The notes below the pieces were generated by a model. It had not been told where the DNA came from. It saw only the letters and a program-made list of their open reading frames with translations, and searched no databases. Shown piece after piece: positions 7,788-57,530 of a stretch of 64,000 bases of DNA. The stretch is taken from NCBI GenBank assembly GCA_000433315.1, contig FR893385.1, forward strand, positions 29,667 through 93,666, in the 5' to 3' direction. Positions within the stretch are counted from its first letter, which is position 1. The number at the start of each line of letters is the position of its first letter. The stretch is from Firmicutes bacterium CAG:345. Lineage in GTDB: Bacteria; Bacillota_I; Bacilli_A; RFN20; CAG-288. Position numbers and translations under genes: made by a program.

Positions 7788-9095
7788 CTACTTTTTAGTG
7801 CCAACTTTAATCTTAGTGATTAATTTACCTTTGGCAAAATCTTGAGCTAAATCAATATGTGATGGGCAAATAGCTGAGCACGATCCACAAGAAACGCAAG
7901 ACATAATGCCTAATTTATCAGCAGATTTATAATCTTCACGTCCTAAAGCCATGCGAATTAAAACAGGTTGTAATGAACTTGGGCAAACTTCAATACATTT
8001 ACCACAATGCCAACAAGCGACTGGTTTATATTCATGTTCTAACTTTTTAATATTAAAAACAGTTATACCTGAATTATTATTCATCAAAGCAATTTCTTCT
8101 GATCTAGCTGCTTTACCGGTCATTGGTCCACCTATAACAATCATCACATCATCTTCGGTATTATATCCTCCGAGGAATTTTATTATTTCTCCAATAAGTG
8201 TTCCAACTGGGCAAATGACGTTGTTATTATTTTTTAAAGCATCACCAGAAAAAGTATATGTTCTAAATCCTAAATTCTCAGTGCCGATAAATAGGTCACC
8301 AATTTGAGCTATTGTTTCAACATTATTGACAACAGCACCAACTTCAATAGGCAAAACATTATAAGTTTTCTTTAAGACGAACTTAACGAGTGTTCTTTCA
8401 TATCCAGCTGGGTAAACGTCTGGTACTAAATGTAGTTCTAATTTGTCATGACCTTGTAAAGCTTTTTTAACTGGTTCAATCAGATCTTTTTTCGATTTTT
8501 TAAAGCATAGATAAGCTTTATCTAAGCCAAAAGTTTTTACAATTTTTTCCATGCCGACAATAACAGAATTCAAGCGTTCCTGTAAAGCTTTATAGTCAGT
8601 TGTTAAATATGGTTCACATTCAACCGCATTGACAATTAAGTAAGAAATTTTCTTATTTGTTTTGTACTTTAAATAAGTTGGAAAGCCAGCTCCACCCATG
8701 CCGACAAGTCCTGCATTTTGAACAGCAGAAATAAATTCTTCTTTTGAAATGTCATCTTTTAATAAAGGTCTATCAACAGCTTCATATTTTTTGTCATTTT
8801 CAATAACAAAAAAATCTGTTGGACGACCCAAGGTACTATTGAAAAGTTTTTTAACTTCTTTAATTGTTCCAGAAACAGAAGAGATAACTGGGATACTGAA
8901 ATCTGGACGAGTACCTAAAACTGTGCCTCTTAAAACTTTTTCACCAGCAGCAAGTTTATCTTTGAGTGGTAAACCTTTATTGTCTACCGCGGAAATATAA
9001 ACAAAATCCGGATCGAAGCGGAGAGGGCTTTTGTGATCAGTAAGCTCTTTATGTCCTATAATGTGCTTATGACCAACTGCATTTAAATTGTTCAT
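7788..9095 (-). CDS. rnfC: Rnf complex subunit C
   Basis: GMGGAGFPTYLKY NADH-binding motif; two 4Fe-4S motifs CWHCGKCIEVCP and CVSCGSCSAICP. Confidence 0.92.
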   Translation of the reverse strand: MNNLNAVGHKHIIGHKELTDHKSPLRFDPDFVYISAVDNKGLPLKDKLAAGEKVLRGTVLGTRPDFSIPVISSVSGTIKEVKKLFNSTLGRPTDFFVIENDKKYEAVDRPLLKDDISKEEFISAVQNAGLVGMGGAGFPTYLKYKTNKKISYLIVNAVECEPYLTTDYKALQERLNSVIVGMEKIVKTFGLDKAYLCFKKSKKDLIEPVKKALQGHDKLELHLVPDVYPAGYERTLVKFVLKKTYNVLPIEVGAVVNNVETIAQIGDLFIGTENLGFRTYTFSGDALKNNNNVICPVGTLIGEIIKFLGGYNTEDDVMIVIGGPMTGKAARSEEIALMNNNSGITVFNIKKLEHEYKPVACWHCGKCIEVCPSSLQPVLIRMALGREDYKSADKLGIMSCVSCGSCSAICPSHIDLAQDFAKGKLITKIKVGTKK

Positions 9096-9203
9096 ATCTT
9101 TCTCCTTAACGTCTTTTATTATATAAAAGAAAAAATAAAAATTAAAGTAGTTATCACTTTTTAGAAATGAATTTCAATATTTGTATTACTCGCTCATTAT
9201 TTA

Positions 9204-9233
9204 TTGCCAAATAATCATTTGCGCAAATATAAT
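9204..9233 (+). promoter_or_regulatory. pflB promoter TTGCCA-N18-TATAAT with perfect palindrome TTTGCGCAAA in the spacer
   Basis: Sigma-A-like hexamers read directly; the 10-bp palindrome lies at 9218..9227. Confidence 0.5.
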
Positions 9234-9282
9234 TCATAAAATTTCTCAAATTTAAAAAAGCTGAAATTGTAAGCACTTTCAT

Positions 9283-9311
9283 AATGCGTATTAATTGTAA
9301 AAAAACGCATT
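9283..9311 (+). promoter_or_regulatory. inverted repeat AATGCGT-N15-ACGCATT in the pflB 5' UTR
   Basis: Perfect 7-bp inverted repeat between the promoter and the RBS. Confidence 0.35.
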
Positions 9312-9365
9312 GTTAGTTTATTCTAATATTGGCTAAATTGCTGTTTAATTAATTTGGAGGTAAAA

Positions 9366-11438
9366 ATGGAAGAAAAACAAGAATGGCGCAATTTTGTCGG
9401 CGGTGCCTGGCAAGGCGAAGTCGATGTTCGCGATTTTATTCAAAAGAACTACACACCATATGATGGTGATGATAGTTTCTTAAAAGGTCCTACCGATGCT
9501 ACAAAGAAACTTTGGGCACAAGTCATGGAACTCAGTAAAGAAGAAAGAGAAAAAGGCGGTGTCCTCGATATGGATACTAAAATCATTTCTACAATCACTT
9601 CTCATGGTCCTGGCTATTTAAATAAAGACCTTGAAACAATTGTTGGTTTCCAAACAGATAAACCATTTAAGCGTTCTTTACAACCATATGGTGGAATTCG
9701 TATGGCTGAAAAAGCTTGCTTAGATAATGGATATAAAGTTGATCCTGAAATTTCTAAATTCTTCAAGATTCATCGTAAAACTCATAACGCTGGTGTCTTT
9801 GATGTCTATACACCTGAAATGCGTGCTTGCCGTTCAAGCCACGTTATTACCGGCTTGCCAGATGCTTATGGTCGTGGCCGTATTATCGGTGACTATCGCC
9901 GTGTTGCTTTATATGGTGTTGATTTCTTAATCAAAGACAAGGAAGATCAAAAAGCTTCTACACCTGATATCATGACAGAAAATGTCATTCGTGATCGTGA
10001 AGAATACAGCGAACAAATTCGCGCTTTACAAGAATTAAAAGAACTCGGAAATATTTATGGTTACGATATTTCTAAACCTGCAAAAGATGTCAAAGAAGCT
10101 ATTCAATGGTTATATTTCGGCTACTTAGCTGCTGTTAAAGAACAAAATGGTGCAGCAATGAGTTTAGGTAGAACTTCTACATTTATTGATATCTATGCTG
10201 AAAGAGACTTAAAAGAAGGTAGATATACCGAAGAGCAAATTCAAGAATTTGTCGATCACTTCATCATGAAATTACGTCTTATCAAATTTGCTCGTACTCC
10301 TGAATACAATGCATTATTCTCCGGTGATCCTCAATGGGTTACAGAATCCATTGGTGGTGTCGGAATCGATGGAAGACACATGGTTACAAAGATGAGCTAT
10401 CGTTATCTCCATACTCTTTCTAACCTCGGAACTGCACCAGAACCAAATTTAACAGTTTTATGGTCAAATCGTTTACCATTAAACTTCAAAAAATTCTGTG
10501 CTAAAACTTCCATTGAATCGTCTTCAATTCAATATGAAAACGATGATCTCATGAGAGTAACTCATGGTGATGATTACGCTATTGCTTGCTGCGTTTCTTC
10601 CATGAGAGTTGGTAAAGAAATGCAATTCTTCGGCGCTCGTGCTAACCTCGCAAAGACTTTACTTTACGCCATCAATGGTGGTTATGATGTTTTCTCCAAT
10701 AAACAAGTTGGACCTGAATATCGCCGAATCGATAGCGAATATCTCGACTACGATGATGTAATGAAACATTACGATACAATGATGGGTTGGTTAGCTGGTG
10801 TTTATGTCAACGCCTTAAATATTATTCACTATATGCATGATAAATATTGCTACGAAAGAATTCAAATGGCTCTTCATGATGCTCATGTAACAAGATGGTT
10901 TGCTACAGGTATCGCTGGATTATCTGTTGTTGCCGATTCCTTATCCGCAATTAAATACGCTAAAGTTAAGGTCATCAGAAATGAATTAGGATATGCCATC
11001 GGATATCAAACTGAAGGTGACTTCCCTAAATACGGAAACGATGATGATAGAGTAGACTCTATCGCTGTCGATATCGTTAAACGTTTCATGAAACACTTAA
11101 AGAAATATCCTACATATCGTGGTGGTATAACTACAACTTCTATTCTTACAATTACTTCCAACGTTGTCTATGGTAAAAATACTGCTTCTACTCCAGATGG
11201 TAGAAAAGCTGGTGAACCATTTGCTCCAGGTGCTAACCCAATGCATCACCGTGATTCTCATGGTGCTGTTGCATCCCTTGCATCTGTCGCAAAGATTCCA
11301 TTCAAATATGCTCAAGATGGTATATCAAATACTTTCTCCATCATCCCAGGTGCTCTAGGTAAAGATGATCAAGTCTTTGCTGGAGATCTCGATGTTGAAT
11401 TATCTAACTTCGATCCAAGTGAACACGAAGGCAAATAA
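9366..11438 (+). CDS. pflB: pyruvate formate-lyase catalytic body, lacking the C-terminal glycyl-radical domain
   Basis: Collinear with E. coli PflB from [18 protein letters not shown] through the IACCVSSM catalytic Cys pair to ALGKDDQV. Then it diverges and stops. ATG at 9366 with GGAGG RBS (the ORF-track start at 9354 is TTG). Confidence 0.9.
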
Positions 11439-11641
11439 TGAATACAGATAACGAAAAACTTATTGAAGATATTATAAATTCATTAGATAACGCTACAAAT
11501 AACGGCGTCGGACATGTTGAAGTTAAAGTCAACAAAAAAAATTCAAATGTCGAAATTACAAATATATCAAAAGATGATGACAGCGATGATGGTCTTAAAA
11601 AAGAAGTTAAGACCATCGGCTGTGTCAAATGTGCTAAATAG
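11438..11641 (+). CDS. 67-aa ORF inserted between the PFL body and the glycyl-radical domain
   Basis: Start overlaps the pflB stop (TAATG); no recognisable domain; ends CVKCAK. Confidence 0.3.
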
Positions 11642-11651
11642 GAGGCTAAAT

Positions 11652-11897
11652 ATGGCAAAAGCTACAGAACAACAAATCGATAACTTAGTTAATATGTTAG
11701 ATGGCTATACAAAAGAAGGTGGCCATCATCTCAATGTCAACGTTCTTACAAAAGAAACTCTTCTCGATGCTCAAAAACATCCTGAAAATTATCCTCAACT
11801 CACAATCCGTGTCAGTGGATATGCTGTCAACTTCATCAAATTGACAAAAGAACAACAAGACGAAGTTATTTCTCGTACATTCCACGATGCTATTTAA
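11652..11897 (+). CDS. autonomous glycyl-radical domain (GrcA/YfiD-like; homologous to the PFL C-terminus)
   Basis: 81 aa with its own GGAGG RBS; aligns residue for residue with the E. coli PflB C-terminus including the RVSGYAV glycyl-radical motif. Confidence 0.85.
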
Positions 11898-11900
11898 GCT

Positions 11901-12663
11901 TATGGAAGGTCATATTCATTCAACAGAAAGTTTTGGAACAGTCGACGGACCGGGTATTCGGTTCGTCGTTTTTTTCCAAGGCTGTCCAATGCGTTGTCTA
12001 TTTTGTCACAATCCAGATACATGGAAGATTAGTACCGATAAAGATAAAAAAAATTTAATGTCTGTTGATACTATTATTGAAAATTATAAAAAAAATCTTC
12101 CATTTTATAAAAATGGAGGAATAACATGCACTGGTGGAGAACCACTGCTTCAAATAGACTTTTTAACCGAATTATTTAAAAGATGTCACGAAGAAAATAT
12201 TCATACCTGTTTGGACACTTCAGGGATAACATTCAACCCAAGCGATGATAAAAATCTAGCTAAATTCAACGAATTAATTAAATACACTGATTTAGTTATG
12301 CTCGATATAAAACAGATAGATAATGAGAAGCACAAAATTTTAACATCGCAAAACAATGATAGAATTCTTGCTTTTGCAGAGTACTTATCTGACAATAATA
12401 TTCCTATTTGGATAAGACATGTTGTTGTTCCAGGTTATACTGATAAGAAAGAAGATTGGTATAAATTAGGACAATTCATTGGAAAATTAAAAACATTAAA
12501 AGCTTTAGATTGTTTACCTTATCATACCATGGGTGTAAATAAATATTATAGTTTAAATATTCCATATCCTCTAGAAGGCGTTGAACCAGCACCTAAAGAA
12601 TTAGCTGCTAATGCAAAAAAAGAGATACTTCGAGGAATAATTAGCGTACGCAATAAAAAATAA
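11901..12663 (+). CDS. pflA: pyruvate formate-lyase activating enzyme (radical SAM)
   Basis: GTVDGPGIRFVVFFQGCPMRCLFCHNPDTW aligns with E. coli PflA; likely start MEGHIHS at 11901. Confidence 0.9.
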
Positions 12664-12671
12664 AATTAAAC

Positions 12672-12716
12672 AAAGCAGCTTTTATAATTATTAAAAAATA
12701 AAAGTTGCTTTTTTCT
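12672..12716 (+). terminator. rho-independent terminator after pflA
   Basis: AAAGCAGCTTTT...AAAAGTTGCTTTTTT hairpin with a T run. Confidence 0.5.
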
Positions 12717-12788
12717 TTCAAAAACCTTATGAAATATAGATTTTACTATTGCATATTTTCATAATTTATAGTAAAATTTATCACAGCG

Positions 12789-12865
12789 CGGGAAATAGCG
12801 CAGTATGGTAGCGCGCTTGGTTCGGGACCAAGAGGTCGCGGGTTCGACTCCCGCTTTTCCGACCA
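12789..12865 (+). tRNA. tRNA-Pro (anticodon CGG)
   Basis: Manual cloverleaf: acceptor CGGGAAA/TTTTCCG, anticodon loop TTCGGGA, T-loop GGTTCGACTCC, CCA encoded. Confidence 0.8.
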
Positions 12866-12884
12866 GTTACCAAAAAATATAGAT

Positions 12885-12961
12885 GGCGGTTGTGGTGAAG
12901 TGGCTAACACATCTGGCTGTGAACCAGACATTCGGGAGTTCGATCCTCCTCAACCGCCCCA
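12885..12961 (+). tRNA. tRNA-His (anticodon GTG) with encoded G-1
   Basis: Acceptor GCGGTTG/CAACCGC, extra 5' G pairing with discriminator C, anticodon loop CTGTGAA, T-loop GAGTTCGATCCTC, CCA encoded. Confidence 0.8.
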
Positions 12962-12977
12962 GTATAGAATTTATTGG

Positions 12978-13009
12978 TCCAGTGTTGAAATACTGGGCTT
13001 TTTTGATGC
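12978..13009 (+). terminator. terminator after the tRNA pair
   Basis: CCAGTgttgaaatACTGG followed by GCTTTTTT. Confidence 0.55.
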
Positions 13010-13739
13010 AGTAATTACAGTGTTTATATTTAAAATGCATAATTTTGCTTGGTAAGCGTCAAAAATAACCAGGATCGAAAAAAGGCTCGAATTTTGAATA
13101 ATTTTTTCAGGAGGAACGAACATGTTTAAAATTGATTTTGTAAAAAAATATTTTTCAAAAAGATATTTTTCAAAAATATAATGTAAGCAAATAAACACTA
13201 TGATGATGGATATGTAAATATAGAAATTTAGTTCAAAATGATTGGAAGATTACTGAAGGTTTTTTTCAAGAAAGAGAATTTAAAAGTTATATAGATAAGT
13301 TATTTGAAATATTTAATAAAGTTAATCCACAAAATAAATCAAGACTAGAAGAAGCAATAAAATATATAACAACAAGAAAATATATTTTTTTAAATATTAA
13401 ACGATGGTCACTTAGAATTAAGCAATAATACAACGAAAAGAGGTATAAAGACATTTGTAATAACAATAAAAAACTTTTTGTTTTCGAATACAGAAAATAG
13501 AACTGAATCATCAGCAATAATTTTTTCAATAATACAAACAGCAATAGCAAATGGAATAGATTATAAAAAATATATAGAAAAAGTAATAAATAATATACAA
13601 CCAAATTCAACAAAAGAAGAATTAGAAAATCTTTTACCTTGGACAATTGAATTGAACTATATATGGATATCTTTGACGCTTACTCTTAACTTTATATGAT
13701 TTAAAAAATGTTGATAAAATTTTATACAACTTAACATAA

Positions 13740-57373: not shown

Positions 57374-57530
57374 ATCACATAATAGAAACTTATTATTGAA
57401 TTTTTTTCTTTTTTTTAGTATAAATAAACATAGAAAAAAGCAAAATTGTTGTAAAGCAATGACGCAAAACTATAGGGTCCATTTTGGACAGCCAGTTGCC
57501 AATATATTAGGAGAATAGAACTGGAATACT

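Follow-up and report, generated by a model that had tools for sequence, protein, structure and literature searches.

A pyruvate formate-lyase of Firmicutes bacterium CAG:345 that is probably split by design: a truncated body, a separate GrcA3 radical subunit, and a putative accessory Cys module

If a gene for pyruvate formate-lyase (PFL) stops before its glycyl-radical domain, is it broken, or does it encode one part of an enzyme that is made in pieces? This question is raised by a pfl locus of Firmicutes bacterium CAG:345, which lies in a 64,000-nt stretch of contig FR893385.1 (assembly GCA_000433315.1, positions 29,667 to 93,666). We call this whole stretch the window, and coordinates below are positions within it, on the + strand unless stated otherwise. 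Among glycyl radical enzymes, PFL is the most widespread, and the step that it catalyzes is central to anaerobic carbon metabolism in the gut. It is usually pictured as a single polypeptide that bears its own radical, with GrcA/YfiD as an emergency replacement in facultative anaerobes; in E. coli, PFL that has been cleaved by oxygen is rescued by YfiD. At the CAG:345 locus, four genes follow each other on the + strand: pflB, which encodes a truncated PFL body (9366..11438); a small open reading frame (ORF) of 67 amino acids (11438..11641); grcA3, which encodes an 81-aa glycyl-radical protein (11652..11897); and pflA, which encodes the PFL activating enzyme (11902..12663). The first-pass annotation, which was made from the DNA alone, proposed either a two-polypeptide PFL with a radical module similar to GrcA/YfiD or a pflB gene that a small insertion had recently disrupted. 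We think that the locus probably encodes a naturally split PFL: an obligately two-piece enzyme with a replaceable radical subunit and, as we infer, an accessory docking module.

The product of pflB is a 690-aa formate C-acetyltransferase that lacks the glycyl-radical domain. It scores 1100 bits against the equivalog model for this enzyme (TIGR01255; cut-off 994.2 bits), over model positions 2-667 of 744, and it matches the Pfam family PFL-like with E = 2e-218. It aligns with residues 9-683 of E. coli PflB (PDB 1h16), and the match runs through V680 of GISYTFSIVPNALGKDDEVR (662-681). Both the ORF list and the raw sequence agree with the first description of how the gene ends: the protein is collinear with E. 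coli PflB and other known PFLs through ALGKDDQV, then continues for 20 residues and stops (TAA at 11436-11438). These 20 residues form an acidic C-terminal tail (11376..11435), which takes the place of the link to the radical domain. The cut is at about PflB residue 680, just ahead of helix 681-692, strand beta10, the loop with Gly-734, and the last helix. The body has the ten-stranded barrel of the catalytic core and retains the catalytic Cys pair (IACCVSSM; C418/C419 in E. coli), a motif that PDB 38lb shares at the aligned position. The glycyl-radical loop (RVSGYAV) is not on this polypeptide; it is carried by the separate 81-aa ORF. We place the start of pflB at ATG 9366, downstream of GGAGG at 9356-9360. 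The mechanically predicted ORF begins at TTG 9354, which belongs to the ribosome-binding region and is not the initiation codon. Gene callers chose the same 690-aa start in related contigs, and in L005-L007 they also chose the 253-aa start of pflA (L numbers denote loci from other assemblies).

The 81-aa protein supplies the rest of the enzyme. It covers TIGR01255 positions 660-743, and Pfam's Gly_radical domain is divided between the two ORFs, with positions 1-51 on the body and positions 48-106 on the peptide (E = 3.8e-24 for the peptide). An alignment of the peptide with residues 678-757 of E. coli PflB confirms the claim that the enzyme's C-terminus, including the radical glycine (G56, codon 11817-11819, in RVSGYAV), is translated separately from a strong ribosome-binding site. 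That site is a full AGGAGG (11640..11645, read directly from the sequence), 6 nt 5' of the grcA3 ATG. The curated family name of the peptide, GrcA3, was not known to the first-pass annotation. Its profile scores identify it as a bona fide GrcA3: it scores 166.9 bits against NCBIfam NF038360 (cut-off 158 bits), over model positions 2-78 of 78, and it is below the cut-offs of the models for GrcA/YfiD (TIGR04365; 97.6 bits versus 170) and GrcA2 (NF008341; 104.6 bits versus 145). Residues 21-80 of GrcA3 align with residues 67-126 of YfiD, and its first 20 residues align with the PflB helix at 678-692. The third component, PflA, is a radical S-adenosylmethionine enzyme with the CxxxCxxC motif (CPMRCLFCHN), and it scores 292.3 bits against TIGR02493 (cut-off 231.75 bits). 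In the equivalog model, and in E. coli PflB too, the region matched by the peptide adjoins the region matched by the body, and we therefore read the two as pieces of one PFL. A second reason is that the split layout, the independently translated GrcA3, and the activase encoded with them are conserved across many species (see below).

As first reported, the gap between pflB and grcA3 is 213 nt, a length divisible by 3, and the two genes share a reading frame. These features might be expected if a small insertion had recently disrupted pflB or if the split were an error of assembly or sequencing, but the comparison with relatives refutes both explanations. The body scores above the equivalog cut-off, and the split is widespread: the same layout is found in dozens of species, and independent assemblies from other samples (L005-L007, L092, and L093) have an identical layout. 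When we searched positions 9000-13500 against Rfam, with E up to 1, we found no group I or group II intron, only tRNAs and one chance-level match to PyrR. No terminal inverted repeats or direct repeats flank the gap, and the small ORF contains no endonuclease, intein, or other domain above threshold in Pfam or NCBIfam. These Rfam, repeat, and domain searches, which include the checks of the 67-aa ORF and the gap that had been suggested at the outset, rule out an intron, an intein, a homing endonuclease, or a miniature inverted-repeat transposable element. A split intein is also ruled out: GrcA3 opens directly with PflB-homologous (extein) sequence, which leaves no room for a C-intein. Also, the G+C content at third codon positions is uniformly low across the genes of the operon (the G+C content of the window is 28.9%), so the genes are not a recent import and have long been resident in a low-GC genome.

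We then compared the locus with its relatives. We scanned one genome per species with the radical peptide, which identified a GrcA3 relative in at least 590 species-level genomes, and we fetched 80 loci from these. (A protein search with the 81-aa peptide found at least 8000 homologues; most of the 120 that were listed have 80-83 aa, and many already bear the name GrcA3.) Of the 80 loci, 78 encode the radical peptide as an ORF of its own. In 69 loci, it lies beside a truncated body; in two, it is fused to the body (L054 and L086); and in nine, there is no body within 1.5 kb. Comparison with the pflB genes of relatives had been proposed as a check on the two-polypeptide interpretation, and the result is that the split is not a strain-specific disruption. 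Nor is the locus a pseudogene: in these 69 species-level loci, the split state has been kept with intact bodies, grcA3, and pflA. Programmed frameshifting or readthrough that would generally join the body to GrcA3 is ruled out as well, because the gaps range from 0 to 480 nt and are in varying frames.

The position of the split is at the same domain boundary throughout. The layout of body, GrcA3, and pflA recurs across many Clostridia and other anaerobes, as expected for the two-polypeptide enzyme that was one of the two alternatives of the first-pass annotation, and the full order of body, small ORF, grcA3, and pflA is also found in Lacrimispora, in Candidatus Hungatella pullicola, and in a metagenome-assembled genome (MAG) from the Oscillospiraceae. 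All 27 of the grcA3 genes that we surveyed for a Shine-Dalgarno match have one, mostly the full AGGAGG 6-mer. Nearly all of the split bodies have a tail signature after ALGKxx, (V/I)F.GD(I/L)(E/D).(D/E)L, which is missing from the fused PFLs L086 and L132 and from PFLs of the E. coli type. A scan of metagenomes again found mostly split forms, including on high-GC contigs. Two of these contigs, L094 and L099, encode split PFLs with Cys tails (VMFDDCVTCG and ...DCACEADASA..., respectively), so the arrangement extends beyond the low-GC Firmicutes. The taxonomic labels of some MAGs may be wrong (for example, those of the Bacteroidaceae, Spirochaetales, and Erysipelotrichaceae loci). Overall, the survey indicates that the split is ancient and widespread and that it occurs in hundreds of species of anaerobes.

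The loci that do not fit this pattern bear on another explanation, which is that GrcA3 is a mere spare part, that the truncated body is an inactive relic, and that a full-length PFL elsewhere in the genome does the work. The family is named "autonomous glycyl radical cofactor" by NCBIfam, and orphan grcA3 genes do exist: of the nine loci without a nearby body, four are at contig edges and five are true orphans. (The orphans are in L022, L058, L068, L073, and L088, at about 4000, 4000, 1390, 4000, and 3840, respectively, with unrelated neighbors and upstream regions of their own.) There are also fused PFLs with a GrcA3-like C-terminus. In L086 (1984-4216), the junction is plain (ALGRDEKNREDNLIALLDGY), while in L054 (1852-4234), which is labeled Treponemataceae, an insert with cysteine (GNCMSCDTATIMAAPTV) separates the radical domain from the body. 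Finally, our search for other PFLs covered the 64-kb window. However, no second PFL was found there; the body in CAG:345 has intact catalytic motifs and is above the equivalog cut-off; the cut is at the same domain boundary every time; and a relic would not persist beside grcA3 and pflA in 69 of 80 loci. We therefore consider the spare-part explanation to be improbable.

What, then, is the small ORF between the body and grcA3? Its ATG (11438) overlaps the pflB stop codon (TAATG), as had been noticed at first, and its own stop codon is TAG at 11639-11641, so that it ends 10 nt before the start of grcA3. It had been described as having no known function; we find that it is a shortened member of a conserved family that is partly paralogous to GrcA3. 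As a single query, the 67-aa protein matches five proteins, all from its own species. CDD23492.1 of Firmicutes bacterium CAG:345, an uncultured lineage of the human gut, has the identical sequence (100%), and a "Bacilli bacterium" MAG has an annotated variant with one residue changed, which at least 1000 contigs carry. Its relationship to the ORFs that occupy this position in other genomes is clear: it aligns with 25 family members (alignment A1) and scores 47.5 bits against the hidden Markov model (HMM) of the family. The family profile matches 214 proteins in a collection of 5.8 billion sequences and, among 1.84 billion representatives, 215 clusters at 50% identity; their lengths are almost all within 54-130 aa. 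The members are all annotated as hypothetical, and none has a Pfam domain. Similarly, no Pfam or NCBIfam family matches the small protein above threshold, and the truncated body has no family of its own in these databases. A below-cut-off match of the small ORF to Pfam's "Protein M, C-terminal" (E = 0.002) is found in one of 26 members, and we take it to be due to chance.

The family's consensus comprises a helix (xIDDLVxMLD), a strand (GxGHxNVxV) with a short hairpin, and a C-terminal Cys motif, (T/S)(D/E)C...AC-x-(V/I)-P-(T/N)-(L/F), which is often followed by xxGLD and an acidic tail. Shine-Dalgarno-like sites precede 26 of 27 copies of the small ORF (in the window, GAAGG, 6 nt upstream). 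Among six copies from Lachnospiraceae, the proportion of synonymous differences (pS) is 0.6-1.0, which is saturated, while the proportion of nonsynonymous differences (pN) is 0.11-0.32 overall and 0.03-0.11 in the Cys motif. This implies that the small ORF is a real, constrained gene and that the Cys motif is under strong purifying selection. The window's own copy has 0 or 1 differences from its same-species relatives (L005-L007, L092, and L093), which is uninformative for the ratio of nonsynonymous to synonymous rates. In L092 (1397-1642) and L093 (1390-1632), the body tail and the small ORF are of the L005 type, and grcA3 has 22 synonymous changes relative to the window (pS = 0.43), which suggests a recombination breakpoint or a mosaic within grcA3.

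The N-terminal part of the small protein resembles that of its neighbor. When the alignments of the small proteins (A1) and of GrcA3 (A2) were compared with hhalign, their N-termini matched over 35 columns with a probability of 96.3% (E = 1.6e-9). Ten of 26 members of the small-protein family also match the NCBIfam model for GrcA3, although below threshold (best E = 5.3e-6). In the window, residues 1-35 of the small ORF (11438..11542) are 34% identical to the organism's own GrcA3. This helix and beta-strand segment is homologous to GrcA3 residues 1-35, which correspond to PflB residues ~678-705, that is, the helix and strand beta10. By these comparisons, the family is a partial paralogue of GrcA3 that came from a duplication of the GrcA3 N-terminus, joined to a Cys/PTLxxGLD motif. 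Two AlphaFold2 runs on the small protein, with family alignments, gave a mean confidence (predicted local distance difference test) of 57, with a helix at 3-21 and strands at 26-32 and 37-44, all at low confidence. The predicted helix and hairpin, which do not add up to a confident fold of their own, are compatible with a segment that folds on a partner, which is not proof that it does.

The other half of the small protein, the Cys motif, is not confined to it. The split loci are of two types. Type 1 (40 loci) has a gap of 0-160 nt between the body and grcA3 and no small ORF, and in 38 of the 40, the Cys motif is at the tail of the body (for example, ...FAGDIEVDLDCAGGACFSPTLFEGLDTDED). Type 2 (29 loci and the window) has a gap of 180-480 nt and a short, Cys-free body tail (...FAGDIELDLNK), and the motif is on the small ORF. 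Thus, the body tail bears the Cys motif in 38 of 40 split loci without a small ORF and in 0 of 30 with one (Fisher p = 9e-18, which ignores phylogeny). Also, when we built an HMM from the C-termini of the small proteins, 29 of the 40 Type 1 tails scored above the best of 1000 shuffled tails. Split PFL therefore appears almost always to be accompanied by the Cys/PTLxxGLD module, whether in cis or in trans. The fused PFL of L054, with its Cys-containing insert, might reflect a re-fusion or else the ancestral state of Type 1.

In the window, much of the module is gone. The small protein ends after GCVKCAK: the invariant cysteine, C65, which is the only invariant column of alignment A1, is kept along with one more, and the last cysteine and the P-T/N-L part are missing. 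The CxxC (C62-V-K-C65, at 11621..11632) is the sole remnant of the motif. At the same time, the 3' part of the ORF can form a strong RNA hairpin (11575..11627, identified from inverted repeat I2 and by folding), which ends 13 nt before the ribosome-binding site of grcA3. A 101-nt segment folds with -29.1 kcal/mol (z = -5.7), and 0 of 200 shuffled sequences fold as well. The 5' arm of the hairpin is a lineage-specific insertion of 11 residues in the small ORF, and its partner is the conserved segment that encodes KTIGCV. So, the 67-aa ORF might be a decaying remnant with little or no function as a protein, while the RNA hairpin in the spacer sets the relative expression or stability of grcA3-pflA within the transcript. 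Besides the loss of the family's best-conserved motif and the origin of the hairpin's 5' arm, this idea would account for the public variants with in-frame deletions and frameshifts (P0122-P0125), and terminator-like hairpins are found at the same position in L036, L037, L039, and L050, which are Type 1 loci without a small ORF. On the other hand, the ORF is intact, with a Shine-Dalgarno-like site, and retains the helix-strand segment and the CxxC, and the 67-aa sequence or its one-residue variant is on at least 1000 contigs. Hairpins are also not general across the split loci (median z = -0.77), and we rejected the idea of a conserved hairpin before grcA3 in all of them. We consider a decaying ORF to be unlikely, but not so unlikely that it can be set aside.

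A second feature of the small ORF suggests how it could be joined to GrcA3. The reading frame of grcA3 is open for 55 codons upstream of its ATG (11487-11651), which is unusual in a genome with 29% G+C (P ~0.002; 0.5% of runs in alternative frames are that long). The small ORF contains a run of eight A's (11534..11541, read directly from the sequence), and deleting 1 nt from this tract would fuse the helix-strand segment to GrcA3 to give a protein of 152 aa. Exactly that fusion is present in public assemblies (P0255, 152 aa, on one contig), as is a partial form of it (P0124, on two contigs), among over 1000. In principle, mutational, transcriptional, or ribosomal slippage in the A8 tract could produce an N-terminally extended radical protein that resembles YfiD. 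But this is a post hoc observation, three contigs (one with P0255 and two with P0124) out of more than 1000 would fit homopolymer errors or rare alleles, no such open frame is found in other lineages, and there is no canonical frameshift signal. The fusion variants may be sequencing noise, and we give slippage very little credence.

We return to the split PFL and to how it might work. PflA would install the radical on GrcA3, either while it is free or once it is bound to the body. By analogy with the action of YfiD/GrcA on E. coli PFL that has been cleaved by oxygen, GrcA3 would dock non-covalently into the body and supply strand beta10 and the Gly loop, which would complete the barrel and the active site. 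The radical part would then act as a cartridge, small and exchangeable, so that repair after damage by oxygen would require the synthesis of a 9-kDa peptide and nothing more. With lower confidence, we suggest a role for the small protein or the Cys tail at the slot for the radical domain, where it would serve in docking or recognition or as a placeholder. PflB residues 696-733 are a recognition element for YfiD (PMC8683613), and the accessory element may be analogous to this segment, which E. coli YfiD requires for binding. The second beta10-like strand of the small protein, in Type 2 loci, might correspond to the state with "two beta10 strands" of cleaved PFL and YfiD. In an engineered system, truncated PFL, tPFL(1-695), and a truncated YfiD, truncYfiD(61-127), were catalytically competent once activated, but they bound and were activated poorly (Andorfer et al. 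2021, PMC8683613); the acidic tail, the Cys module, and the second beta10-like strand are features that could overcome the poor binding. In the CAG:345 lineage, the 3' half of the shortened small ORF may double as an RNA hairpin before grcA3.

A more elaborate version, which we offer only tentatively and think is rather doubtful, is a three-component exchange. In this scheme, the Cys/PTLxxGLD module, whether on the tail of the body or on a small protein that imitates the radical domain's helix and beta10 strand, would occupy or guard the empty slot of the body until it is displaced by GrcA3 that was activated by PflA, or it would recruit the activated GrcA3. Its cysteines would possibly lie near the catalytic Cys pair or hold a metal. 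If so, then PFL in strict anaerobes uses a radical cartridge that can be discarded and quickly replaced, together with a factor dedicated to docking or to holding the slot, and this three-component machine would be a natural answer to the poor binding of the engineered tPFL and YfiD.

Several points weigh against our overall interpretation. That the body and GrcA3 assemble and have PFL activity, we infer from the genes alone, and the accessory role that we propose for the small protein, which is based on homology and gene order, could be wrong. The window's copy lacks the segment that its family conserves best, so as a protein it may matter little; its function is the part of our interpretation of which we are least sure. 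The statistic for the mutual exclusivity of Cys tails and small ORFs does not consider shared ancestry. NCBI's name for GrcA3 implies that it is a spare part and not an obligate subunit, and the five orphan grcA3 genes that are away from any body indicate that GrcA3 can be used in trans too. Also, the absence of a second PFL applies to the 64 kb of the window.

Around the four genes, we noted a few other features. Upstream of pflB there is a candidate for a sigma-70-like promoter (TTGCCA-18-TATAAT, 11/12 matches; 9204..9233), which comes from a consensus scan and is weak, as the total number of sites found was not above the expectation from shuffled sequences. Further upstream is a divergent gene similar to RnfC (7788-9095, - strand), and in the related contig L005, RnfD is next after the RnfC-like gene. 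Within the 5' coding region of pflA (11943-11978) lies a terminator-like hairpin with an 11-bp stem, including 7 GC pairs, followed by T7 (VDGPGIRFVVFF); it could attenuate the expression of pflA relative to pflB and grcA3. Directly 3' of pflA are genes for tRNA-Pro(CGG) and tRNA-His(GTG) and then a terminator-like hairpin (12789-12961 and 12976-12999), so these tRNAs may be co-transcribed with the pfl operon. Elsewhere in the window, at 57429-57503, there is a c-di-GMP-I riboswitch aptamer (62.4 bits versus a gathering threshold of 35).

If our interpretation is correct, then the "spare part" design also serves as a normal design for PFL, and many Lachnospiraceae, Oscillospiraceae, and other strict anaerobes have a split PFL. 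This would provide a natural system for studying how the radical domain is recognized, activated, and docked, as well as a template for engineering glycyl radical enzymes that can be repaired after exposure to oxygen. The accessory module, as a small protein or as a Cys tail, would join the list of partners of glycyl radical enzymes. In practical terms, genome annotations and metabolic models should not call a ~690-aa pflB a pseudogene, nor treat the adjacent grcA3 as only optional.

Part of this was already known: the radical peptide is a curated family and is annotated by NCBI. NF038360, "autonomous glycyl radical cofactor GrcA3," names the radical protein and not the truncated body or the small protein. 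What is new is a constitutive split that, we propose, acts like PFL and GrcA, along with an accessory module that neither Pfam nor NCBIfam names. The term "GrcA3" does not appear in any of the searchable papers, and searching them for phrases about split or truncated PFL likewise found no description. GrcA has been framed as an adaptation of facultative anaerobes (PMC12338860), and a review of glycyl radical enzymes from June 2026 describes only spare parts of the YfiD type (PMC13450708).

The solved structures that are closest to the body are two entries named "Formate acetyltransferase," PDB 38lb (739 aa) and 38la (687 aa): the body scores 1154.8 bits against 38lb, 1107.3 bits against 38la, and 973 bits against E. 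coli PFL. The chain of 38la is cut right after ALGKSG, and the tail of 38lb (ALGKSGNVMFGECDMCEMK... / ...NVMFGECDMCEMK, compared without its last ~39 residues) resembles the Cys tails of split PFLs. GrcA3 matches 33 PDB sequences, but not these two chains, which therefore do not include a radical domain. In other words, a split-type body has been crystallized both with its tail (38lb) and without it (38la). No partner chains were deposited with 38la or 38lb, the PDB has no chain similar to GrcA3 or to the small protein, and we found no paper linked to these entries in the literature that we searched. 38lb is from a different organism than ours. Neither a query with its tail, nor the small-ORF profile, nor the metagenome scan found an exact match to that tail; the nearest metagenomic relative is 77% identical over the queried region, and L094 is the closest relative that we found to the tail.

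Among characterized systems, the most similar are E. coli PflB with GrcA/YfiD and phage T4 Y06I, in which a small, free protein with RVSGYAV is activated by PflA and completes a PFL body, as we predict here. (GrcA-like genes of phages are mostly of the T4 type.) But in E. coli, the body is full length, and GrcA acts only after oxygen has cleaved it at G734. The body in CAG:345 never had a radical domain, so the small radical protein should be obligatory. GrcA3 also differs from YfiD (127 aa) in that it lacks the disordered N-terminus of ~60 residues and includes the helix of PflB 681-692, and, in contrast to E. coli with its GrcA, the hosts of split PFL are strict anaerobes. Like the engineered tPFL(1-695) and truncYfiD, the natural system has a body that is cut before beta10 and a free radical domain. 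However, the natural cut is 15 residues earlier (~680), and the natural system adds an acidic tail, the Cys/PTLxxGLD motif, and, in Type 2, a small protein with a second beta10-like strand.

In other glycyl radical enzymes, the dynamics or the activation of the radical domain are modulated by small polypeptides or motifs with cysteines that are encoded together with this domain or lie beside it: examples are the beta and gamma subunits of benzylsuccinate synthase (BSS), the gamma subunit of 4-hydroxyphenylacetate decarboxylase, and, in class III ribonucleotide reductase, the Zn(Cys)4 site adjacent to the radical domain. The small protein has no relationship to BSS beta/gamma (BssB/BssC) or to HpdC that is detectable with Pfam or NCBIfam, and it has two or three cysteines, as compared to the four-Cys cluster sites of BssB/BssC, HpdC, and class III ribonucleotide reductase. 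For BSS, regulation involving the beta subunit is described in PMC12590467. Unlike these other accessory subunits of glycyl radical enzymes, the small protein of split PFL appears to be a paralogue of the N-terminus of the radical domain itself.

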